In this document: positions 10,276-26,563 of the stretch, one piece after another
Position numbering within the stretch: the first letter of the stretch is position 1
Layout: each line of letters opens with the position of its first letter
Assembly (NCBI GenBank): GCA_034722055.1
Contig: JAYENL010000176.1
Location: forward strand, 1-32,340
Length of the DNA stretch: 32,340 nt
Origin: Armatimonadota bacterium
GTDB taxonomy: Bacteria > Armatimonadota > Zipacnadia > Zipacnadales > UBA5352
Direction: 5' to 3'
Made by a program: the position numbers and the translations under genes
The notes under the pieces: model-generated
What the model was told of the DNA's origin: nothing
Database searches by the model: none
What the model saw: only the letters and a program-made list of their open reading frames with translations

Positions 10276-10352
10276 CAGCGGCAAGCTTCAAGCGGCAAGC
10301 TACCAGCTATCAGTCGTCAGTCATCAGCTATCAGTCATCAGCTATCAGCTAC
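10276..10352. repeat. Degenerate heptamer tandem repeat, 11 units (CAGCTAT/CAGTCAT/AAGCGGC variants)
   Basis: Read directly. Shorter runs occur at 10764-10784 and 12198-12225. Confidence 0.85.
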
Positions 10353-10393
10353 TGCCGAGTGGCGGAGGTTCGGGTATTGTCCCGAGCTGGTTG

Positions 10394-10740
10394 GCCGCGC
10401 CGTTTGGAGGGGCGGGACTACGCTCCCGCCCGGTCGTTCGGATGCAGCCCCATCCCATAGCCGCGCCTTCGATTGCGTAGATCGGGCTTCCAGCCCAACA
10501 ACAGCGAACGGCGTGCGGAGGAGGGCCTCCGCACCACGGACAGAAGCGTGCGTCCCACGGAACGGCGTCGTTTGCCGCGCCGTTTGGCCCCGTCGTTCGG
10601 ATGCAGCCCCATTCCGTAGCCGCGCCTTCGATCGCGTAGGTCGGGCTTCCAGCCCGAGAAACGGCGTGCGGAAGAGGGCCTCCGCACCACGGATAGGAGT
10701 GCCCGTCCCACGGAACGGCGTCGTTTGCCGCGCCGTTTGG
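10394..10740. repeat. BIME-like composite repeat: two tandem ~150-bp units (10433-10587, 10592-10740) plus a flanking hairpin
   Basis: Both units run GTCGTTCGGATGCAGCCCCAT…GGGCTTCCAGCCC…GTGCGGA.GAGGGCCTCCGCAC…CCCACGGAACGGCGTCGTTTGCCGCGCCGTTTGG. Confidence 0.9.
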
Positions 10741-10805
10741 AGGCGTCGGTCTCCACCCCGGCCCATCTATCAGCTACCAGCTATCAGGGCCACAAGCCCG
10801 GGGCG

Positions 10806-12121: not shown

Positions 12122-12296
12122 GCGCGCATCATCCCTTCGACCGCCGGCCGTAAGCAAGCGGTGGAAGGTTCCGCTCCCGACAGAGCCGAACCTTCGTCAG
12201 CTACCAGCAATCAGCAATCAGCTACGGCAACGGCGAACGGCAGGGCAGTGGGACCGTGGCGCCGGCTTCCAGCCCGCCGGCCGTGGGAGGTGCAGC

Positions 12297-15166: not shown

Positions 15167-15551
15167 CGCGTTCCACAATTACGCGTTCCACAACTACGGC
15201 AGGCGGGCGCCCTCGCCCGCCTGCGGGCCGAAGGGTCCCTCGATCCTCGAACGACAGGAGACCAGAGGTCTCACGGGCGCGAGCGTAGTCGCGCCCCCTA
15301 AACGGCTGGGCAAACGCCGCCCTCCCGTGGCACGCACGCTTCTCTCCGTGGTGCGGAGGCCCTCCTCCGCACGCCGTTTCTCATTGTCGGGCTGGAAGCC
15401 CGACCTACGCGAAGGGGGGAGGCCGTTTGCCGTTCCGTGGGACGGACACTCCTGTCCGTCCGCCGTTCGCGGAACGGGCCAAGCGTTTGGGGACTACGGG
15501 GAGCGTACTCGCCCTCCAAGCGGCACGGCAAACTGGCGTCGGGCTGGAAGC
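15167..15551. repeat. Second composite repeat cluster, in inverted orientation to 10394-10740
   Basis: About 15275-15412 and 15429-15459 are reverse complements of modules of the first cluster. CGCGTTCCACAA occurs twice (15167, 15182), and there is a REP-like hairpin at 15199-15224. Confidence 0.85.
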
Positions 15552-15704: not shown

Positions 15705-17747
15705 GTGCCGCGACTGCTGATCTTCGCGCTCGCGCTGACTCTGACGGCCTGGGGAGCCGCCGCCCAGGTGGTCTCTCCACTGGAGGCTGACGAGCATACG
15801 CTGCTGCTGTACCGCTTCGAGGGCGAGGGCGACGAGGTGGTCGATGAGGGCCCGCTGGGCCTCAACGCGTCGGTCAGCGAGGGCCAGCTCATCCGCACGG
15901 AGGGCATCTGCGGGAGGGCCATCTCGCTGAGCGACCACCAGGCGCTGGTCCTGCCACAGACCCCCGAGGAGCTGCGGGGGATGGACCAGATCTCCGTCGA
16001 GGTGTGGTTCCGCACCACCAACGAGGATCCTACGCACCGCCAGCGGCTGGTGCTCTACTGGGAGCACTACCTGATCAGCATCTTCGAGGGCGGGCGACTG
16101 ACCGGCCATCTCTACGATCAGGACGCCACCAAGTACGTCCTGCGCGGCACAGACGCCATCCGTCCACACGAGTGGTATCACGCGGCGCTGACGTGGGATG
16201 GCCAGCGGGCCAGGCTGTGGCAGAACGGCCGCCAGGTAACCAGCCTCCGCATGACCGGAACCATCAACGCGGCCGTCGGCGGAGGACTGCAGATCGGGAC
16301 GGTGGGCGGGGATTCCTTCATCGGAGAGCTGGACGAGCTGCGCATCTCGAAGGTGGCGCGGACGGCCTTTCCGGCCGCCCGGCAGTACGACTTCTGCCAT
16401 CCCAGCACCACGCTGGCCGTCGCCCCCGGCCCGGCGCGCATGATCTTCGATGCGGTGGTACCACAGGACGTCACTCGCGTGGAGTGCCGCGCGGAGCTGG
16501 AGGGCGGCCCGTCGGGCACGGCCACCATCGCCGAGCTGGAGGCGATGGAGGGGCTGGGGATGCTGGAGGGGGGCGCGGAGGTCGTGCTCACAGTCCCGGG
16601 AGCCATGGCCGGTGAGACGACCTTCACCGGCACGATGACATACCACAGCGGCGGAGAGCAGATCCAGGCACGGAGGGAGTTCACCATGGACGTGGAGCCG
16701 ATGGTGCCGCCGCCGGCGGAGGAGTTCCGCGCGGCGTGGACGCACAGCCACCGCATTGAGGATCCCGAGGACATCTTCTCGCGCATGGCCGCCGGGGGGC
16801 TCAACGCCGCCATCATGCGGGTGCGGCGCGGTGAGACGGCCTACTACAACTCGGCGCTGGGGCCCATCTCGAAGGTGCCATTCGACAACGAGCAGCTTCT
16901 GGAGGAGTGCGCGGCGGCTGCCAAGCGCCACGGCATCGACCTGCATCTTTACGTCAACAACTTCCCGGTGGGCTCGCCGGACTCGGATTACGCCCAGCGG
17001 CTCAAGGAGCAAGGGCGCTGGCAGAAGAACCACCGGGGCGAGGACGTGGCCTGGCTGTGCCCCAGCCACCCGGAGAACCTGCAGCTTGTCGAGGACGCCA
17101 TGGTGGAGCTGGTGCGGGATTACGACATCGCTGGCGTCCAGTACGACTTCATTCGTTACGGCGGCGAGGACGTCTGCTTCTGCGACCGCTGCCGGGCGAA
17201 CTTCGAGGAGCGCATCGGACACGAGGTTGAGAACTGGCCGGAGGACTGTCGGCCGGACGGGCCGCTCTACGATGAGTGGATGGACTTCCGCGCCGGCCTG
17301 ATCACCCAGGCCGTCCGGCGCACCAGCGCGGCCGTGCGGGCCGAGGACCCGGACGCCATCATCACCGCGGCGGTCTTTGCGATGCCCCCGGAGGAGGCGA
17401 AGCTGAGGGTGGGACAGGACTGGGCGCTGTGGTGCCGCGAGGGCTTGCTGGACGCCCTCTGCCCCATGTCCTACACCGGGGACAACGCTGACTACGAGCA
17501 GACGGTGGGGCTGATCCTGGAGGCGGTGGGCGAGTACCTGCCGGTCTACGCCGGGATCGGCGTCCGAGCCAGCCGCAATCGCATGCAGTATCCTGAACAG
17601 CTCGCGGCGAAGCTGAACATCCTGCGGCGGCTGGGGGCACCCGGGTTCTCGATGTTCTGCGTGACGCCCACGACCGATGTGCCCGAGCAGATCCTGATGC
17701 CGCTGCGGGATACGCTCCTGCCCGGCAGGGGCCGAGGCGAGCAGTAG
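15705..17747 (+). CDS. Secreted LamG-like jelly-roll plus GHL10 (glycosyl hydrolase-like 10) protein
   Basis: GTG 15705 after GGGAGG and a signal peptide. LamG motifs LLYRFE, WYHAALTWDG, FIGELDELRIS. GHL10-like motifs FRAAW, WLCPSHPE, GVQYDFIRY, QDW, CPMSY. Confidence 0.85.
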   Translation: MPRLLIFALALTLTAWGAAAQVVSPLEADEHTLLLYRFEGEGDEVVDEGPLGLNASVSEGQLIRTEGICGRAISLSDHQALVLPQTPEELRGMDQISVEVWFRTTNEDPTHRQRLVLYWEHYLISIFEGGRLTGHLYDQDATKYVLRGTDAIRPHEWYHAALTWDGQRARLWQNGRQVTSLRMTGTINAAVGGGLQIGTVGGDSFIGELDELRISKVARTAFPAARQYDFCHPSTTLAVAPGPARMIFDAVVPQDVTRVECRAELEGGPSGTATIAELEAMEGLGMLEGGAEVVLTVPGAMAGETTFTGTMTYHSGGEQIQARREFTMDVEPMVPPPAEEFRAAWTHSHRIEDPEDIFSRMAAGGLNAAIMRVRRGETAYYNSALGPISKVPFDNEQLLEECAAAAKRHGIDLHLYVNNFPVGSPDSDYAQRLKEQGRWQKNHRGEDVAWLCPSHPENLQLVEDAMVELVRDYDIAGVQYDFIRYGGEDVCFCDRCRANFEERIGHEVENWPEDCRPDGPLYDEWMDFRAGLITQAVRRTSAAVRAEDPDAIITAAVFAMPPEEAKLRVGQDWALWCREGLLDALCPMSYTGDNADYEQTVGLILEAVGEYLPVYAGIGVRASRNRMQYPEQLAAKLNILRRLGAPGFSMFCVTPTTDVPEQILMPLRDTLLPGRGRGEQ

Positions 17748-17831
17748 GGGCCCAGCAGCCGACTGCAGGCGACGAATGCGCGGCCCGGGCGCCTCCACGG
17801 GCGCTGCGGGCCGCCTTCACGGGAGCTGACC

Positions 17832-18761
17832 ATGGCACACGAGCGGGACGCCATTGAGGAGCGGTGCGGGCCGATTCTGGACCCGATCCTCCTGTCCGTC
17901 GCCATCATCTGGGGCGGCAACTTCGTGGCCTACAAGTACCTCATGGCCGCGATCCCCGCGCGGGGCCTGCTGGCGGCGCGGTTCATCTCCATCACCGTGC
18001 TGCTCCTGGCGATCCTGGGCGTCCGGGGGCGCCTGCGGCAGGGCAACACCCGCGCCATGTGGGTTCGCCTCTTCCTGGCCGGCGTGCTCATCATGGGCCT
18101 GCAGCAGATCGCCTTCGTGACGGGTCTGGACCTGACCGCAGCCGGCGAGGGGTCGCTGATCTTCTCCACCGCGCCCATTCTCACCGCCCTCATGGCCGCC
18201 GCCATCGGCCAGGAGCGTATCACACCCGCCAACTGGCTGGGGATCGCTGCCGCCATGGCGGGCACGGCCATGGTCATCCTCGGCGGGGCGGGGGCCCTGC
18301 ACGTGCCCGAGACACGGGTGACCGGCGATCTGCTGATGCTGGCGTCCTCGTTCGGCTACGCCCTCTTCATGGTGGTCAGCAAGCCCCTCATGCGCCGGTA
18401 CGGGGCGCTGAAGGTGGTCTCCTTTGCCTACCTCTTCGGGCTGCTGGTGGTAGTCCCGTTCGGGGCCGGGCAGATGGTAGGGGCGGATTGGGGCGCGCTG
18501 AACGCGGCCGGCTGGTTCTCCATGTTCTGGCTGGTGATGCTGGCGGGCGTCTACGGCTTCGTGGCATGGTACTGGCGGATCTCGCGGACCACGCCCTCCC
18601 GCGTGGCCGTCTACCAGTACTTCGTGCCGGTTGTGGCGATGGTGACGGCGGCGCTGCTGCTGGGGGAGCGGCCGTCGTGGCTGCAGATCGTGGGGGCCTG
18701 CCTCGTGCTGGCAGGGCTCTACTTCGCCCGCCGCCGCGACCCCACCGCCTGCCCCACCTGA
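17832..18761 (+). CDS. DMT/EamA family transporter
   Basis: IIWGGNF, two EamA repeats, about 10 TM helices, LLLGERP motif. Confidence 0.92.
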   Translation: MAHERDAIEERCGPILDPILLSVAIIWGGNFVAYKYLMAAIPARGLLAARFISITVLLLAILGVRGRLRQGNTRAMWVRLFLAGVLIMGLQQIAFVTGLDLTAAGEGSLIFSTAPILTALMAAAIGQERITPANWLGIAAAMAGTAMVILGGAGALHVPETRVTGDLLMLASSFGYALFMVVSKPLMRRYGALKVVSFAYLFGLLVVVPFGAGQMVGADWGALNAAGWFSMFWLVMLAGVYGFVAWYWRISRTTPSRVAVYQYFVPVVAMVTAALLLGERPSWLQIVGACLVLAGLYFARRRDPTACPT

Positions 18762-18769
18762 GCCGCTGC

Positions 18770-19147
18770 GCATTAGCGACATCTTGCACGCTCGTGGAAG
18801 GCCAATGCCCGCGGCGCGACACGAACCCGTTTGCCGGCATGGAGGGGCCGCTCCGAGCGTCGCCGCCCCGGCGGCGCGAGGAGTGAGGCCCGCCAGGGCC
18901 GAAGGTTCCACCCCGGCCCATGCCCTTGCCTGACGGTGAACGGCAAACGGCCGGGCCGGGATGGAACCTGCCGCACTGCGCACAACGACCGCGCAGGCGG
19001 CACCCTGGAGTTCAGATAGTGAACTCTTAAGAGAAGCCTGCTGGCTTCTCCATCGCTGCGCTCGGGCGGCCCCTCCAGACGACAACAGCACACGGCTGAG
19101 CCACTGCCCAAATGCATCTCAGGCTTCCCGCAAGATGTTGGTCATGC
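18770..19147. ncRNA. Unassigned highly structured intergenic element (candidate ncRNA or MITE-like remnant)
   Basis: Nested long-range pairings 18779-18787:19130-19138 and 18840-18859:19059-19077 enclose six hairpins. Confidence 0.5.
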
Positions 19148-19272
19148 AGAGCCTGAGCCCCGGGCGCTGCCCGAACGTGGCAAAGAAGCCTCCGGAACGT
19201 GCCCCGAAGCCGTGAATCTCCTCCGCAACGGGCGAGAAACCGAAGAATTCCGCGCATTTTCGGCCGAAAACG

Positions 19273-19301
19273 TTGACACGCGCGCCCCGTGCAGATACAT
19301 T
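19273..19301 (+). promoter_or_regulatory. Sigma70-type promoter of the DUF2188 gene
   Basis: TTGACA (19273-19278) - 17 nt - TACATT (19296-19301). Confidence 0.7.
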
Positions 19302-19344
19302 ATGACCAACACACAGCGTCTCGTCATGACGGAGGGTGATTGGG

Positions 19345-19566
19345 ATGCCTAAGCGAGCGTACCGCGCGGTGCCCGACGGCGAGGGATGGGCCGTGAAGCG
19401 CGAGGGCAATCAGAGGGCCACCTCGCGCCACGACACCCAGAAGGAGGCCTGGGACGCGGCGCGCGAGTGGGCGAAGAAGCATGAGACCAGCGCCTACAAG
19501 CATGGGATGGATGGCACCATCAAGGAGGAGCGCTCTTACGGCTCGGAGTCCCCGCGACCGGGCTGA
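19345..19566 (+). CDS. DUF2188 family small protein
   Basis: VPDGEGWAVKREG..RA…TQKEA…AR…H..DG.I.EERSYG pattern; GGAGG RBS. Confidence 0.85.
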   Translation: MPKRAYRAVPDGEGWAVKREGNQRATSRHDTQKEAWDAAREWAKKHETSAYKHGMDGTIKEERSYGSESPRPG

Positions 19567-19591
19567 GGCCTTCAGACAAAGTCCCGCCATA

Positions 19592-19619
19592 GACGACGCG
19601 CCTGGCCGGGCGTGTCGTC
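19592..19619. terminator. Hairpin between convergent genes
   Basis: GACGACGCGCC-TGGCCG-GGCGTGTCGTC forms an 11-bp stem; no U tract. Confidence 0.45.
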
Positions 19620-20712
19620 ACACATTGTCCTCAATCCACTGCAGCGTCCGTTCCAGCTCCTCGCGATCCGCGGCGCGCGTCTGGTAGAAGAGCCGGTCGG
19701 GTCGCAGGCGCTCATGGAAGCGCGGCAGCTCCTCGACGCTGCAGTAGGCCATGACGCTCTTCCCCCGCTCCTGGACCTCCGCCAGCAGGTCCAGCCACTC
19801 CACCAGCGGCGGTGCTCCAGACCCCGGGACCCACTGGATGCAGTCGATGGCGTCGATGGCCATGAGATCGTCCATGTGCACCAACGCGGTGGGTCCATCC
19901 CAGTGGTAGATGCAGTGATCGAGGTGCTCGGCCTCCGCCTCCAGGTCCGGGAGCACGAAGCGCCGGAAGTGCTCAGGGCCAATCAGCGCCGCGAAGTCGC
20001 ACTGGATGGCGTTGCACGAACCGTCGGAGTAGGCGGAGATCCAACCCGCGCCCGTCCCCAGGCGGTCCATGGCCCCATCCTCGTGGAAGGTGTCGTAGAT
20101 GGGTGCGTAAAGGTCCCGCACCTGGTCATTGGCGCGCTCCACCAGCTCGGTGTGCTCGTAGAGGTCGAGGCACAGATCCGTCGCGCCGCGCAGGCTCTCC
20201 AGGGCGTCGAGGTTGGAGTGCAGGTCGAGATGCGAGACCAGCCACCGGCCCTCCCCCACCTCCGCCATCCGCTGCACCAGCTCCCTCATGCGCCTCCAGT
20301 AGCGGTTCTGCACAATCTCCAGAGGCAACACGTCCCGCCAGTCCTCCACGAAGGGCACCGCCCAGCTCGTGCGATGCTCCTGGTCGCGGGAGAACTCGAG
20401 CTCCGCGCCCAGGAAGGCCGCGAAGATGTCCGGCCCAAACCCAGGCGAGAACATGGGGACGGCGTCCCCGCCCCAGTAGATGGTCTCCATATACCGGTCC
20501 ATGTGCTCGACCAGCTCGTCGAGGGGATCGTGCAGCATGTCCCAGTACGTCGGCCGCCCAACGGGCTCGACGCCCTCCGCGGGGCAGGTGATGATCACCG
20601 GAGGGCGGTCCAGCATCTCGCCCTGCCAGAACGCCTCCCATCGGGCGGCGGCCTCGTGGAAGTCGGGCTTGAGCGCCAGCGGCCCCTCGGCGGCGGTCAT
20701 GGCGGTCACCAT
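19618..20712 (-). CDS. Uroporphyrinogen-decarboxylase-fold / MtaA-CmuA-like protein of unknown function
   Basis: DRPPV, D.LESLRG…LCLDL, IQCDF..LI.PE.F..FVLP, YHWDG and IQWVPG motifs; start at 20712 or 20700. Confidence 0.75.
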   Translation of the reverse strand: MVTAMTAAEGPLALKPDFHEAAARWEAFWQGEMLDRPPVIITCPAEGVEPVGRPTYWDMLHDPLDELVEHMDRYMETIYWGGDAVPMFSPGFGPDIFAAFLGAELEFSRDQEHRTSWAVPFVEDWRDVLPLEIVQNRYWRRMRELVQRMAEVGEGRWLVSHLDLHSNLDALESLRGATDLCLDLYEHTELVERANDQVRDLYAPIYDTFHEDGAMDRLGTGAGWISAYSDGSCNAIQCDFAALIGPEHFRRFVLPDLEAEAEHLDHCIYHWDGPTALVHMDDLMAIDAIDCIQWVPGSGAPPLVEWLDLLAEVQERGKSVMAYCSVEELPRFHERLRPDRLFYQTRAADREELERTLQWIEDNV

Positions 20713-20863: not shown

Positions 20864-21640
20864 ATGCAGTATGGGATTCGCGAGAATCTGATGGGCGCAG
20901 ATATATCGCTGGAGGAGAAGTTCCGCCGGGCCGCGGAGCTGGGCTTTGACGGCATCGAGATGATCCCCCGGGAGCGGGAGGGGATCCACGGCATGATGGC
21001 GTTCGAGAAGGAGGGCCGGGAGGAGCTGCTGCGGCTCGGCGAAAAGCACGCGCTGGCGATCTCCTCGCTGTCGCTGGCCACGTGGCGGGAGTTCAACTGC
21101 CTGACCACCGATGATCCTCAGTGGCAGCTCGGCGTCGAGCATCTGCTGGAGGCCATCGGCGCGGCGACCGACCTGGGCTGCACCGGCATCCTGCTGCCGC
21201 ACTTCGGGCACATGGAGCCGAGCCTGGACGACCCGCGCCTGGAGCCGGACCTGAGAGGCATCCGGGAGGCGGTCGAGAAGGCCGGCAACTCCGAGATCCT
21301 GATCTGCCTGGAGTGCACCGTGGACCTGGAGACCATGCAGGGGATCGTGGAGACCGCCAGCCACCCGCAGGTGGGGATCTACTTCGACGTCGGCAATCTG
21401 CGCAACACCGGGCACGACCCGGCGGCCATGATCCGGGCACTGGGCGACGGGGTGAAGATGATCCACATCAAGGAGGCCGGCGCGGAGCTGGTAGGGGAGG
21501 GCGATGTGGACTGGCACGACGTGGCGGCGGCGGTCGGCGAGATCGGCTATGACGAGTGGCTGGTCTTCGAGACCGCGCCCACCGATGACCCCATGGCCGC
21601 CATGCGCCACAACCTGCCGGAGACGAGGAGGCACTTCTGA
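20864..21640 (+). CDS. Sugar phosphate isomerase/epimerase (xylose isomerase-like TIM barrel)
   Basis: LGFDGIE, ICLE, YFDVGN, IHIKE, GEGDVDW and WLVFE motifs; AGGAG RBS 8 nt before ATG 20864. Confidence 0.9.
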   Translation: MQYGIRENLMGADISLEEKFRRAAELGFDGIEMIPREREGIHGMMAFEKEGREELLRLGEKHALAISSLSLATWREFNCLTTDDPQWQLGVEHLLEAIGAATDLGCTGILLPHFGHMEPSLDDPRLEPDLRGIREAVEKAGNSEILICLECTVDLETMQGIVETASHPQVGIYFDVGNLRNTGHDPAAMIRALGDGVKMIHIKEAGAELVGEGDVDWHDVAAAVGEIGYDEWLVFETAPTDDPMAAMRHNLPETRRHF

Positions 21641-21659
21641 CGCACCCAGGAGGGGTCAC

Positions 21660-24128
21660 ATGCTCCCGCGATGTCATGCCATAAACGCACTGGCGGCGAT
21701 CGTGGTGATGGCGGCACCGGCAGCAGCTCAGGACTCGCTCGAGATCGTGCACGATGGCGAGGCTCGCGCCGCCATTGTGGTCCAGCCTGGGGCCCCCGAG
21801 CAGCTCCTGGAGGCAGTGGAGGAGATGCGCTCGCTCATTGAGCGCGCTTCCGGCGCATCGCTCGAGGTCGGGGACGCCCCACCGGAGGGCGTGGCGACGA
21901 TCCACGTGGGGCGCACGGCCGCCGTGCAGGCGCTGACCATCGACCTGGCCGACCTCGATGGCGACGGCTTCGTGATCGGGGTCCCGGACGAGGACACCAT
22001 TGTCATACTCGGGCCGACCGACTGGGGCACGGAGTTCGGGATCTACGAGTTCCTGGAGCGCTACGTGGGCGTCCGGTGGTTGATGCCGGGGCCGGATGGC
22101 ACCTACGTGCCCGACCGCGCCACCATTGAGGTGCCCCATGACCCGGTGCGCCAGGAGCCGGCGTTCTTCTCACGCAAGTACTTCGGCCTCAAGCACGAGG
22201 CGCACCGGCTATGGGCCCGCCGTAACCGCCTCCACAGCCGCGTGGAGTTCCACCACCAGCTCTACAAGCTCTTCCCGCACAGCGACGTGGAGGAGCACCC
22301 CGAGTTCTTCCCCATCCGCGACGGCGAGCGCTACTTCCCCCCGCGGGAGACGCATCACACAGGGTGGCAGCCGTGCTTCACCGCACTGGGAATCGTAGAG
22401 ACCGCCGCCGAACGTATCACCGAGTACCTCAACGAGCACCCCGAGGCGGAGTCCTATTCCCTTGGCGTCACCGACAGCAGCGGCCACTGTGAGTGCGAGC
22501 GCTGCCGGGCGCTGGATCCGGGCCGGGAGAACGTGCTGGGCCGCGAGCATCTCTCCGACCGCTACTTCACCTGGGCGAACGCCGTGGTGGAGCGGGTGCT
22601 GGAGGTGCATCCGGACACGTTCTTCGGCTGCCTGGCCTACAGCGAGATCTTCGAGCCGCCCGACCGCGTGCAGGTGCACCCGCGGATCATTCCCTATGTG
22701 ACCTATGACCGCATGAAGTGGATCCACCCCGAGATCCGGCAGGAGGGGCACGACCTGACGCGGAGCTGGGCGGAGGCGTCGCCGAGAGTGGGCTGGTACG
22801 ACTACATCTACGGCTCCATCTACTGCGTGCCGCGCGTCTACGTCCACGAGATGGCGGAGTACTACCGCTTCGGCCACGACCACGGCGTGCGCGCGCTGAC
22901 CGCCGAGGCCTACCCCAACTTCGGCGAGGGCCCCAAGCTCTACGTGTCGCTGAAGCTGCAGTGGGATCCCACACAGGATGTGGACGCGCTGCTGCAGGAG
23001 TGGTACACGCTGGCGGTGGGCGAGGACGCCGCGCCCTACCTCGAGCGATACTACGACCACTGGGAGGACTTCTGGACGCGGCGGATCCTGGAGTCAGACT
23101 GGTTCCGCGAGCGGGGTCAGTACCTACCGTTCTACTCGCCCGCGTATCTGCAGGATGTCGCGCCCGAGGGGGTCGCGCAATGTCGGGAGTGGCTGGAAGC
23201 GGCCGTGCAGGCGACGGAAACGGCGGATCAGCGGGCGCGCGCGCAGGTCCTGCTGCGGGCCTTCGAGTACTACGAAGCGTCGGTCATCGCCTATCCGCGG
23301 GAGGGAGCGGCGCCGAGGCTGGCGTCTGAGGCAGAGGCGCTGGAGCACATCGACCGTTCGTTGCGGCGCACGCAGATGGCGCAGAAGCGCCTGCGGCTGG
23401 CGCTGGAGGAGTTCCCCGGTCATCCCTTCCTGCACTTCGGCACCAGCATCGATCGATACGAGGCCGTGGCCGGCCGGGACTGGGGCGCGACCACGCTGTG
23501 GGCGGTCTTCGACTGGGTGCTGCGCAGCGACGCGGTACGCGAGCGTATTGAGGCCCTGGCCGCGGCGGCGGAGCCGGCGCCTGTCGCCGCACACGCCGAG
23601 GCAATGCTGCTGGCGGCCGAGCCGGGGGACTCATTGCTCCTCAACACCTCCTTCGAGGACGGTGAGGGCCCACGGGCGGAGGGATGGAGCTACTGGCTGC
23701 AGGACGGAGTGGGCGCTCTGACCCGCACCGATGAGCTGGCGTTCGCCGGGAAGCACTCACTCCGCTGCGACGGCGTGCAATACGGCGGACCGCACCAGTC
23801 GGTGGCCTTTGAGGCGGGCCACTATGCGCTGGTCTGCCGGCTGTTTGTGCCTGAGAATGTTGAGCTGGAGGGCCACTGCATTCTGAGCGTGCGCGCTCTG
23901 GACGCCGATGGGCACAACCTGCCGGGCGGAGCGACGGTGCAGCTCACCCCGGTCCGAGGGCGGTGGCAGGCAGCGGCCGCGTTGGCCGACCTTCGCGACG
24001 TCGCGAACGCCGCCAGCGTGCGGGCCGGCGTATGGGCGCGCGAGTGCGCCCCAGACGATCGCGTCTACATCGACGACGTGGCGCTGATGCGCCTGCCAGA
24101 TGGAGAGCACGCAGAGGAAGGTGACTGA
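21660..24128 (+). CDS. Secreted DUF4838-like protein with a C-terminal CBM-like domain (paralogue 1)
   Basis: Signal peptide; GTEFGIYEFLERYVGVRWLMPG, HPEFF, QPCFT, D…HCECERC, CLAY, WDP motifs; C-terminal LNTSFE…YIDDV. Confidence 0.8.
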   Translation: MLPRCHAINALAAIVVMAAPAAAQDSLEIVHDGEARAAIVVQPGAPEQLLEAVEEMRSLIERASGASLEVGDAPPEGVATIHVGRTAAVQALTIDLADLDGDGFVIGVPDEDTIVILGPTDWGTEFGIYEFLERYVGVRWLMPGPDGTYVPDRATIEVPHDPVRQEPAFFSRKYFGLKHEAHRLWARRNRLHSRVEFHHQLYKLFPHSDVEEHPEFFPIRDGERYFPPRETHHTGWQPCFTALGIVETAAERITEYLNEHPEAESYSLGVTDSSGHCECERCRALDPGRENVLGREHLSDRYFTWANAVVERVLEVHPDTFFGCLAYSEIFEPPDRVQVHPRIIPYVTYDRMKWIHPEIRQEGHDLTRSWAEASPRVGWYDYIYGSIYCVPRVYVHEMAEYYRFGHDHGVRALTAEAYPNFGEGPKLYVSLKLQWDPTQDVDALLQEWYTLAVGEDAAPYLERYYDHWEDFWTRRILESDWFRERGQYLPFYSPAYLQDVAPEGVAQCREWLEAAVQATETADQRARAQVLLRAFEYYEASVIAYPREGAAPRLASEAEALEHIDRSLRRTQMAQKRLRLALEEFPGHPFLHFGTSIDRYEAVAGRDWGATTLWAVFDWVLRSDAVRERIEALAAAAEPAPVAAHAEAMLLAAEPGDSLLLNTSFEDGEGPRAEGWSYWLQDGVGALTRTDELAFAGKHSLRCDGVQYGGPHQSVAFEAGHYALVCRLFVPENVELEGHCILSVRALDADGHNLPGGATVQLTPVRGRWQAAAALADLRDVANAASVRAGVWARECAPDDRVYIDDVALMRLPDGEHAEEGD

Positions 24129-24130
24129 GA

Positions 24131-26563
24131 ATGAGAGTGTGCGCGCTGATCACGTGCGTGGTCGTTGCCGGATGCGTGGCGAACGCCGCCCCGGTGACCA
24201 TCGTGCAGGACGGACAGCCGACGGCGGCGATCGTGATCCCGGAGGATGCGCCGGCTGAGATCACCCGAGCGGCAGACGAGATGCTCAGTTGCATCGAGGA
24301 GGCGTCGGGGGCGCGGCTGCAGACCGGCACAGAGCCGGCGGAGGGGCTGGCCGCGATCCACGTCGGAGAGACCGCCTACGTGCAGTCGCTTGAGATCGAG
24401 ATGGACACCGACAGCGTGGACGCGTATACCATCCGGTTCCCCGCACCGGATACCGTCGTGATCCTGGGCGCCAGCCCCTCGGGAACCGAGTTCGGCGTCT
24501 ACGGCTTCCTGGAGCGCTTTCTGGACGTGCGCTGGCTGCTGCCCGGGGAGAGCGGCCGCGACGTGCCGGAGCAAGCGACGATCGTCATTGAGGACGAGCC
24601 GGTGCGGGACGAGCCGGTGTTCATGTCGCGACTGTTCAGCGGCGGGCGCGGTGCTCACAACCGGTGGGCGCGGAAGAACGGAATGCACGGGACAATCCAG
24701 TTCCACCACAACCTCCGCGAGCTCTACAAGCCCGAGGTCTTCGGGGAGGAGCATCCCGAGTTCTATCCCCTCTGGGACGGAGAGCGCTTCAACCCGCTGG
24801 AGAGCGATACGCGCTGGCAGCCGTGCTTCACCGCGCCAGGGATCGTGCAGGCAGGCATCGATCGCATCGTCCAGTACTTCAACGAGCATCCCCAGGCCAC
24901 GTCCTACTCCCTGGGGGTCAACGACACGCGCCGGCACTGCGAGTGTGAGAGCTGCCGGGCGCTGGACCCGGGCCGGGAGAACTTCCTGGGGCTGCCACAC
25001 CTGTCAGACCGCTACTTCACCTGGGCCAACGCGGTCGTCGAGGGCGTCCTTGAGGTGCACCCGGACAAGTACTTCGGCTGCCTGGCTTACAACTGCGTGG
25101 TCGAGCCGCCGGACCGCGTGGAGGTCCACCCGCGGATCATCCCCTACATGACCTACGACCGCATGAAGTGGATCCACCCGGAGATCGAGGCCCAGGGGAA
25201 GGCGCTGACCGAGGCGTGGGCCGAGGCCTCACCCACGCTCGGGTGGTACGACTACATCTACGGCACCCCCTACTGCCTGCCACGCTATTATCCCCACACG
25301 ATGAGCGAGTACCTCAGGTGGGGCTATGAGCACGGCGTGCGCGCCCTTTACGCCGAGGCCTACCCCAACTTCGGCGAGGGCCCCAAGCTCTACGTCTGGC
25401 TGGCGCTGGGCTGGGACCCCTACACGGACGTGGATGCGCTGCTGGATGAGTGGTTCGAACGCTGCTGCGGGCCGGACTCGGCCGACGCGTTGCGCAGCTA
25501 CTACGAGTTCTGGGAGACGTTCTGGACCGAGCGCATCCTCGAGTCTGAGTGGTTCAGCGAGGGCGGGCAGTATCTGCGCTTCAACACGCCGACGTACTTG
25601 AGCGAGGTCACGCCCGAGGAGATCGCGCAGTGCCGGGCGTGGCTGGAGGAGGCCGTCGCCAACGCACACACTGACAAGCAGCGGGCGCGGGGAGAGCTGT
25701 TGCTGCGGGCCTTTGAGTACTACGAGGCCTCGGCGCTGGCCTACCCGCGGGCGGAGGCGGTGCAGGAGAGCCCGGCCACCGAGCAGGAGGCCCTGGCGCG
25801 GCTGGAGGACGGCCTGCAGTCAGTCGCGATGGCCGAGAAGCGGCTGGAGCTGGCCCAGCAGTTCGAGGACCATCCGGTGCTTGTCCATCCCCTGCCCCCG
25901 CAGCGCTACTCGGCCACGCGCGGCACCGGTTGGGGCACCGACCGCATCTGGCAGCTCTACGAGTGGGCCCAGCAGAGCGAGACCGTGCGCCGGAAGCTGC
26001 AGGACCTGGCGGCGAACTCGGAGCACGACGTCGTGCGGGAGAACGCCTCCCTGATGCTCAGCGTCGTGGAGGGCGAGGCCGAGAACCTGGCGACGAACCC
26101 CTCGTTTGAGGAGGGCGACCAGTGGGCGACGGGCTGGACCCAGTGGGTGAAGTTCGGCGTGGGCTCGAAGTACCGCACCACTGAGATGGCGCACAGCGGG
26201 GAGGCATCCGTGTGCTGCGAGGGCATGCGGCGGGGCGGGCCGCATCAGAGCCACGTGCTGGAGCCGGGCAAGTATGCTGCCACGTGCTTCTGCTTCGTCC
26301 CGGAGGGCCAGGAGACGACGGGGACGGGGACGGTGGCGCTGACGCCCATCGACCCCGACGGCAACAACATCGCGGTGGGCGAGCTCTCCGCGACGGTCAT
26401 CCCATCCGGCGGCCGCTGGCAGACGCTGGCCGTGGCCGGCGAAATCCCCTCACAGATCGGCGGCACGTCCGTCGATCAGGTGCGCCTGATCGTCATCGTG
26501 GACGGCTTCGACCCCGACGGAAAGGTCTACCTGGATGACGTGAACCTCTTCCGGGTGGAGTAA
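24131..26563 (+). CDS. Secreted DUF4838-like protein with a C-terminal CBM-like domain (paralogue 2)
   Basis: Same motif order as the upstream paralogue, starting 2 nt after its stop; signal peptide with a possible lipobox VAGC. Confidence 0.8.
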   Translation: MRVCALITCVVVAGCVANAAPVTIVQDGQPTAAIVIPEDAPAEITRAADEMLSCIEEASGARLQTGTEPAEGLAAIHVGETAYVQSLEIEMDTDSVDAYTIRFPAPDTVVILGASPSGTEFGVYGFLERFLDVRWLLPGESGRDVPEQATIVIEDEPVRDEPVFMSRLFSGGRGAHNRWARKNGMHGTIQFHHNLRELYKPEVFGEEHPEFYPLWDGERFNPLESDTRWQPCFTAPGIVQAGIDRIVQYFNEHPQATSYSLGVNDTRRHCECESCRALDPGRENFLGLPHLSDRYFTWANAVVEGVLEVHPDKYFGCLAYNCVVEPPDRVEVHPRIIPYMTYDRMKWIHPEIEAQGKALTEAWAEASPTLGWYDYIYGTPYCLPRYYPHTMSEYLRWGYEHGVRALYAEAYPNFGEGPKLYVWLALGWDPYTDVDALLDEWFERCCGPDSADALRSYYEFWETFWTERILESEWFSEGGQYLRFNTPTYLSEVTPEEIAQCRAWLEEAVANAHTDKQRARGELLLRAFEYYEASALAYPRAEAVQESPATEQEALARLEDGLQSVAMAEKRLELAQQFEDHPVLVHPLPPQRYSATRGTGWGTDRIWQLYEWAQQSETVRRKLQDLAANSEHDVVRENASLMLSVVEGEAENLATNPSFEEGDQWATGWTQWVKFGVGSKYRTTEMAHSGEASVCCEGMRRGGPHQSHVLEPGKYAATCFCFVPEGQETTGTGTVALTPIDPDGNNIAVGELSATVIPSGGRWQTLAVAGEIPSQIGGTSVDQVRLIVIVDGFDPDGKVYLDDVNLFRVE

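Follow-up and report, generated by a model that had tools for sequence, protein, structure and literature searches.

A 386-bp gene-less insert with IS50/Tn5-type ends encloses a RAYT-type REP pair at an EamA stop codon in an Armatimonadota bacterium

The IS50 (Tn5) subgroup of the IS4 family and MITEs such as Chunjie are the closest described systems to the outer part of the element analyzed here. The IS50 end consensus listed in Table 1 of PMC2266710 reads CW------Y---CA-A--W, and 8–10 bp duplications of the kind considered below are presented in that paper as a signature of DDE transposases; for Chunjie, PMC3184786 gives a 21-bp terminal inverted repeat (TIR) and a 9-bp direct repeat. The interior is closest to REPINs and RAYTs, for which inverted palindromic units and a variable spacer are described in PMC3337134, PMC6006769, and PMC8266576. 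PMC8266576 refers to the spread of REP repeats as poorly understood. In bioRxiv 2021.07.10.451892, REPINs are kept apart from MITEs, the two classes differing in their enzymes and lifetimes. Some ISs target REPs, the examples in PMC1525189 being ISRm22 of the IS4 family and the IS110 members ISPpu9, ISPpu10, and ISPa11.

The DNA studied here (the window) is a stretch of 32,340 nucleotides from contig JAYENL010000176.1 of assembly GCA_034722055.1 (genome G000). A first-pass annotation, based on the letters of the window, had placed a multi-stem element at 18770–19147. The actual unit extends four bases further at each end, to 18766–19151, with a 9-bp direct repeat outside. It is 386 bp long, gene-less, and bounded by 21-bp inverted repeats of the IS50/Tn5 type, and the flanking 9-bp repeat, CCTGAGCCG/CCTGAGCCC, spans the stop codon of an EamA gene. 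We consider it very probable that this non-coding insert, with its IS50/Tn5-type ends and 9-bp duplication enclosing a RAYT-type REP pair, was pasted at the EamA stop in trans by a DDE transposase of the IS50 type. The observed parts of this model are the ends, the duplication, the empty site, the copies, the complete IS relative, and the agreement between the core and the arms that flank RAYT genes. The features of the locus are as follows.

17832–18761, plus strand: flanking EamA-family transporter gene (PF00892), outside the element
18757–18765, plus strand: left copy of the target-site duplication, CCTGAGCCG, including the EamA stop codon (18759–18761); 8/9 identical to the right copy
18766–18786, plus strand: left terminal inverted repeat, IS50/Tn5 type, decayed; 6/7 IS50 consensus positions
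18787–18840, no strand assigned: left shell spacer, common to copies; no significant likeness to IS subterminal DNA
18841–18919, plus strand: left-hand long unit of the REP pair, GGAGGGGCCGC ... AGGTTCCACCCCGGCCC, containing internal hairpins; RAYT genes have flanking arms with this head and tail
18920–18952, no strand assigned: variable spacer of the doublet; a RAYT gene occupies the corresponding place at G000:C193
18953–19076, minus strand: right long REP unit, inverted and split by a 47-bp insert; from sequence comparison with RAYT arms
19006–19052, no strand assigned: 47-bp double-hairpin insert without target duplication; 15 copies, precisely absent from sister copies
19077–19130, no strand assigned: right shell spacer; a profile of 19079–19155 matches 23 loci
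19131–19151, minus strand: right terminal inverted repeat; 5/7 IS50 consensus positions, 16/21 identical to the left repeat
19152–19160, plus strand: right copy of the duplicated target site, CCTGAGCCC; in the alignment, the G001 orthologue has its stop codon here
19273–19301, plus strand: flanking sigma-70-like promoter, outside the element, also at the empty site
19345–19566, plus strand: flanking DUF2188 gene, outside the element, also at the empty site

A blastn search of 18700–19250 against G000 revealed related sequence in 83 clusters at E 1e-3. Coverage increases steeply at 18770 and drops after about 19153; related DNA is present in 14 of the 17 same-family genomes. The 21-nt end motif, with consensus CTATGCATTACCCACATCTTG, was used for a motif scan of G000, which gave 70 matches (19 after shuffling of the genome) and yielded 13 pairs in inverted orientation. 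Ten of these pairs were kept as complete shells; two longer alternatives (C154 and C221) and one mixed pair were left out. When a 1-base shift and lengths of 8–10 were allowed, a target duplication was found in eight of the 10 complete shells, the other two having none, compared with one of 90 mismatched-flank controls. A profile seeded with the left shell alone recovered only itself. Across genomes, the motif occurs with up to two mismatches in 11 of 18 family genomes (reversed control, 0), and exact matches are found at 30 loci in the genome collection. The consensus of the shell family fits the IS50 consensus at 7/7 positions.

The insertion is also supported by an empty site in the same-genus genome G001, whose flanks align with 16332–18762 and 19201–20658 and leave 44 nt between them. 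Orthologous EamA genes were inspected at 11 loci; the 700 nt downstream of each contain neither a REP foot nor a TIR, so that the element is absent from all of them. The sequencing data examined comprised four DNA runs of one study; their contigs contained no joint skipping the whole element and thus no empty allele was seen there. Several related genomes also have the sigma-70-like promoter and the DUF2188 gene (19273–19566) downstream of EamA, some of them with extra leader DNA. Further along the window, two tandem paralogous DUF4838 genes (21504–26563) are in register at a spacing of 2,450 nt.

A complete relative was found in a related genome. Locus L091 is a 1,466-bp IS4-family IS with nearly the same ends, both fitting the IS50 consensus at 7/7 positions, and an 8-bp duplication. 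Its 460-residue ORF scores 420 bits with NF033590 (cut-off 160) and also matches PF14706 and PF02281; the protein carries the YREK motif, and its last codons fall in the right TIR. The left TIR of the window element is identical to the right end of L091 at 16 of 21 positions, and the end of L091 that matches the right TIR (19131–19151) encodes the last codons and the stop of the transposase. The size, ends, duplication, and YREK motif of L091 fit the IS50 subgroup as described in PMC2266710. L091 and L098 are autonomous ISs that combine shell-type ends with a DDE/YREK transposase, and relatives of the L091 transposase occur in five of 17 same-family genomes, at full length in two.

No such enzyme was found in G000, an assembly of 330 contigs that is 92.7% complete: PF14706 gave no matches, nor did the L091 protein or a local tblastn with four transposases, and the flanks printed for the four PF01609 matches contain no shell-type TIR. 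The earlier statement that the window holds no cognate enzyme agrees with our scan of its 16 ORFs. Given the decayed ends and the lack of a cognate transposase in the assembly, the window copy is probably immobile now. Beyond the 21-bp TIR, the shell spacers have no significant likeness to L091 or L098 (scores matched or exceeded by 30 to 424 of 500 shuffles); hence, the comparison does not establish a simple internal deletion of these ISs, and the true parent may be another IS.

The core (18841–19076) consists of two long REP units, inverted relative to each other, with a spacer between them. The commonest 16-mer of G000 is 18904–18919, with 164 occurrences, and the genome contains 168 long REP halves, which are abundant between genes. 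Six Y1 transposase matches were found in G000, one of which, at C193, lies between arms that share head and tail with the two halves of the core and, like these, face inward; it encodes a protein that passes the NCBIfam RAYT model NF047646 (92.1 versus a cut-off of 80). The long arm is present at seven of the 10 best-scoring RAYT loci returned (C193 and six further loci), and the GGAGGGGC foot at 25 of 30 RAYT homologue loci. Close alignments link the left half of the core to the arm preceding the gene of G014, and the right half to arms next to that of G003. Because RAYT-flanking arms match the core, the core looks like a RAYT cassette without its gene and, judged by sequence, like a REPIN in the sense in which PMC3337134 uses the term.

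The REP units are about 77–80 nt long without the insert and 58–87 nt beside RAYT genes. In the window copy, the REP feet are ATGG and CTGG instead of the canonical GT[AG]G; a GTGG foot is present in three of four full arms at C193, and the family conserves (T/C)GGAG. The RAYT at C193:22993–23505 (L111) has D at position 4 after the catalytic Y, as does its orthologue at G001:C185 (L112), whereas most homologues shown have N; the position would correspond to N119, which is essential in the E. coli enzyme. The Y1 loci C100, C256, and C30 of G000 have RAYT-like genes between long direct repeats of REP units, which look as if the gene had been inserted with duplication of its flank.

The element had been called unrelated to the REP family of the window. 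This holds by sequence, as blastn inside the window gave matches of 15–21 nt only (E 0.035 or worse), but not otherwise: the GGAGGGGC foot is common to the element and a repeat at 10406, and the element is itself built of REPs. Positions 10390–10765 and 15295–15470 of the window are other REP mosaics with GTAG-type units, the foot at 10406 being the single GGAGGGGC foot among them, and short tandem repeats of the ATCAGCT type lie at 10300–10355 and 12194–12228.

The 47-bp insert in the right REP unit is found in 13 long REPs of G000 and inside two IS66-family genes. Sister REP copies lack it precisely, and G000 also contains empty IS66 alleles (C249 and C165), one being 99% identical to the filled C281 copy, with no duplication left. 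A joint skipping the 47 bases was seen in three of the four DNA runs. In the IS66-family genes (C281:6144–6190 and C145:9019–9065; L173), the insert occupies the same site within flanks that are only 83–88% alike, possibly as a result of two site-specific insertions. No enzyme for the insert adjoins the 16 loci read. Two metagenome matches to it were discarded as chance matches within unrelated genes. Integrase-core (IS3-like) gene remnants in five related genomes carry one hairpin of the insert by itself, at a site common to them (L156–L159, L162, L166, and L176); in L176, the only member of this set that was scanned, PF13683 was below the cut-off.

Copies of the element gain and lose whole hairpins. 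In G000, a REP foot lies within 140 nt inward of 22 of 23 type-1 TIR ends, and the 13 end pairs include no core-less shell. Among 58 distinct ends in other genomes, a set that includes sister copies and whose rows are therefore non-independent, 25 have a GGAG-type REP inward, two have another REP class (plus two by eye), seven have a transposase C terminus, 13 reach the end of the contig, and 11 are unclassed. One shell without REPs, L078, was also seen. Seen from the REPs, a loose pattern placed a type-1 TIR within 125 nt outward of 25 of the 168 long halves, most halves being shell-free. A second shell family in G000 has a different IS50-like end and a different doublet, with duplications at 10 of 11 complete copies compared with six of 100 controls.

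Examples of this second MITE family, such as C184:8802–9033 and C281:27060–27266, have CTTACCTTTACCCACA-type ends, 9–10 bp duplications, and another GGAG-type REP doublet, and the ISs L099, L103, and L154 have ends similar to these. The TIR of the window family also surrounds a different REP class in L084, L092, L076, and L082, whose record titles name Anaerolineae/Anaerolineales except for L092, which is titled Rhodospirillales and carries a 231-bp element almost identical to that of L084. Shell ends were found beside a REP foot in 5 of 32 type-1 and 15 of 40 type-2 cases, compared with 117 of 3081 windows of a crude intergenic background. At L074:747–2463, a Pfam-confirmed IS110-family gene splits a REP inside an IS50-type shell; the same arrangement is seen from G000:C276:4533 onward, where it is cut by the contig end.

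All stems named in the first-pass annotation were located. The stem ACATCTTGC (18779–18787) pairs with GCAAGATGT (19130–19138), GGAAGGCC (18796–18803) pairs with GGCTTCC (19122–19128), and 18840–18859 pairs with 19059–19077; the hairpins are at 18861–18876, 18887–18900, 18903–18969, 18970–19001, 19008–19026, and 19031–19050. Both strands fold far more stably than expected by chance (z = −9.04 on the plus and −8.60 on the minus strand), and none of 100 shuffles per strand was equally stable. The minimum free energy structure of the plus strand lacks the GGAAGGCC/GGCTTCC pair and, as named, the hairpins 18861–18876 and 18887–18900, which are present in the centroid. Rfam gave no match at gathering score over the window, and near the element a loose cut-off gave chance-level matches (best E 0.068), which leaves the element without a known RNA family.

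Such folding raises the question of a role in RNA. The element could have arrived as a MITE and then been co-opted as a 3′ structure of the EamA mRNA (stabilizer or terminator) or as a stable RNA, a secondary role that would be compatible with the main model but that we regard as unlikely. The element starts 5 nt past the EamA stop on the same strand, so that read-through would transcribe it, and REPs are reported to influence mRNA stability and termination in PMC6006769 and PMC3184786. Across 18 copies, the helices of the plus strand comprise 1279 conserved, 27 compensatory, 91 G–U, 75 A–C, and 192 other cells. The compensatory cells favor co-option, but they are outnumbered by the other mismatches, and G–U and A–C cells are about equally frequent, with no clear strand. 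Of six copies folded, three were about equal on both strands and three were better in this orientation; these counts and the mixed folding therefore pick no strand. Moreover, there is no promoter-like or terminator-like site at the ends of the element, the only nearby promoter-like site on the plus strand being 19273–19301, upstream of the DUF2188 gene, and the absence from the orthologous loci also speaks against co-option. Conservation of the hairpins is expected under recognition of single-stranded DNA too.

We judge it very unlikely that the whole unit is a RAYT-mobilized REPIN/BIME mosaic with the IS50-like ends as passive flanks. The shell-free majority of the long REP halves would fit such a mosaic, as would the presence in G000 of a RAYT with these arms and no detected IS50 transposase, and the ends start with CT, the dinucleotide cut by RAYTs according to PMC8266576. 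This reading does not accommodate the 8–10 bp duplications directly outside the TIRs, or the fact that the same TIR bounds a complete IS4-family element. Y1/HUH enzymes are not known to leave target duplications. The first-pass annotation had suggested a free-standing novel ncRNA gene or an IS110- or IS200/605-type orphan guide RNA; this is hardly credible, since the strong folding without an Rfam family, the IS110 gene inside one related shell (L074), and the clearly better z in this orientation for three of six copies are set against a dispersed and modular element that in the window copy folds equally well on both strands, has IS50 ends, a target duplication, and an empty orthologous site, and gains or loses hairpin modules between copies, while the L074 gene interrupts a REP and thus fits REP as an insertion target.

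The alternative suggestion of the same annotation, a non-autonomous remnant of a mobile element, was right. The proposed IS110- or IS200/605-type ends proved to be IS4/IS50-type DDE ends with a target duplication; the core belongs to a RAYT, a relative of IS200/605 transposases.

According to our preferred model of an IS50-type MITE carrying a REP doublet, cut-and-paste by an IS50-type enzyme would have made the 9-bp duplication. The shell may have acquired its core when a REP doublet inserted into the interior of an IS50-type element or took its place, probably with RAYT as the active enzyme, and a third small element would later have put 47 bp into the right REP of the subfamily founder. The stems would then represent hairpins for recognition of single-stranded DNA, together with the inverted ends, with no selection for a functional RNA. 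The order of assembly itself is not observed, as there is no core-less shell among the 13 end pairs and no type-1 TIR near any of 36 RAYT loci.

Like the IS50 subgroup and MITEs such as Chunjie, the element has CT-starting 21-bp TIRs that fit the IS50 consensus, direct repeats of 8–9 bp (here up to 10), a length below 500 bp, no transposase, many intergenic copies, and stable predicted folding. It differs from them in that a REP doublet belonging to an unrelated transposase system fills the interior; no significant likeness to the ISs compared is seen beyond the TIR, and the assembly yielded no cognate transposase. With REPINs, it shares inverted palindromic units, a variable spacer, a high intergenic copy number, and units that also flank a single-copy RAYT gene, but its doublet is enclosed by DDE-type ends with a target duplication. 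Compared with the REPs described in PMC6006769 and PMC8266576 (21–65 nt), the units are longer, with branched internal hairpins, and conserve the foot (T/C)GGAG, with GT[AG]G in some copies only, although the supplementary REP tables of these papers could list such feet. As with the REP-targeting ISs of PMC1525189, shell ends often adjoin a REP foot and the L074 IS110 gene splits a REP; in those systems, however, the IS sits inside the REP, whereas here the REP doublet is cargo within IS ends. The component kinds are known and their combination is a variant; a REP doublet inside a MITE is not described in the literature searched, which included PMC3184786, PMC10969869, and bioRxiv 2021.07.10.451892 and was largely without subscription journals and supplements.

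These results carry a warning for RNA discovery, as nested mobile DNA is here the source of a multi-stem fold with a z of −9. With somewhat less than even confidence, we propose that IS50-type DDE transposases are a routine second vehicle of REP doublets: in this lineage, a number of independent shell families would each carry a REP doublet between IS ends, and in Chloroflexota-titled records the same TIR surrounds a different REP class. In a bolder form, RAYT itself would build such MITEs, the doublet replacing the IS interior. The window element is both REPIN and MITE: its REP doublet bears the DDE footprint of its most recent move, and the enzyme that brought the REP repeat to this site probably belonged to a different kind of mobile element. 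As about 15% of the long REP halves (25/168) lie inside type-1 ends, part of the REP population of this genome may be amplified without RAYT.
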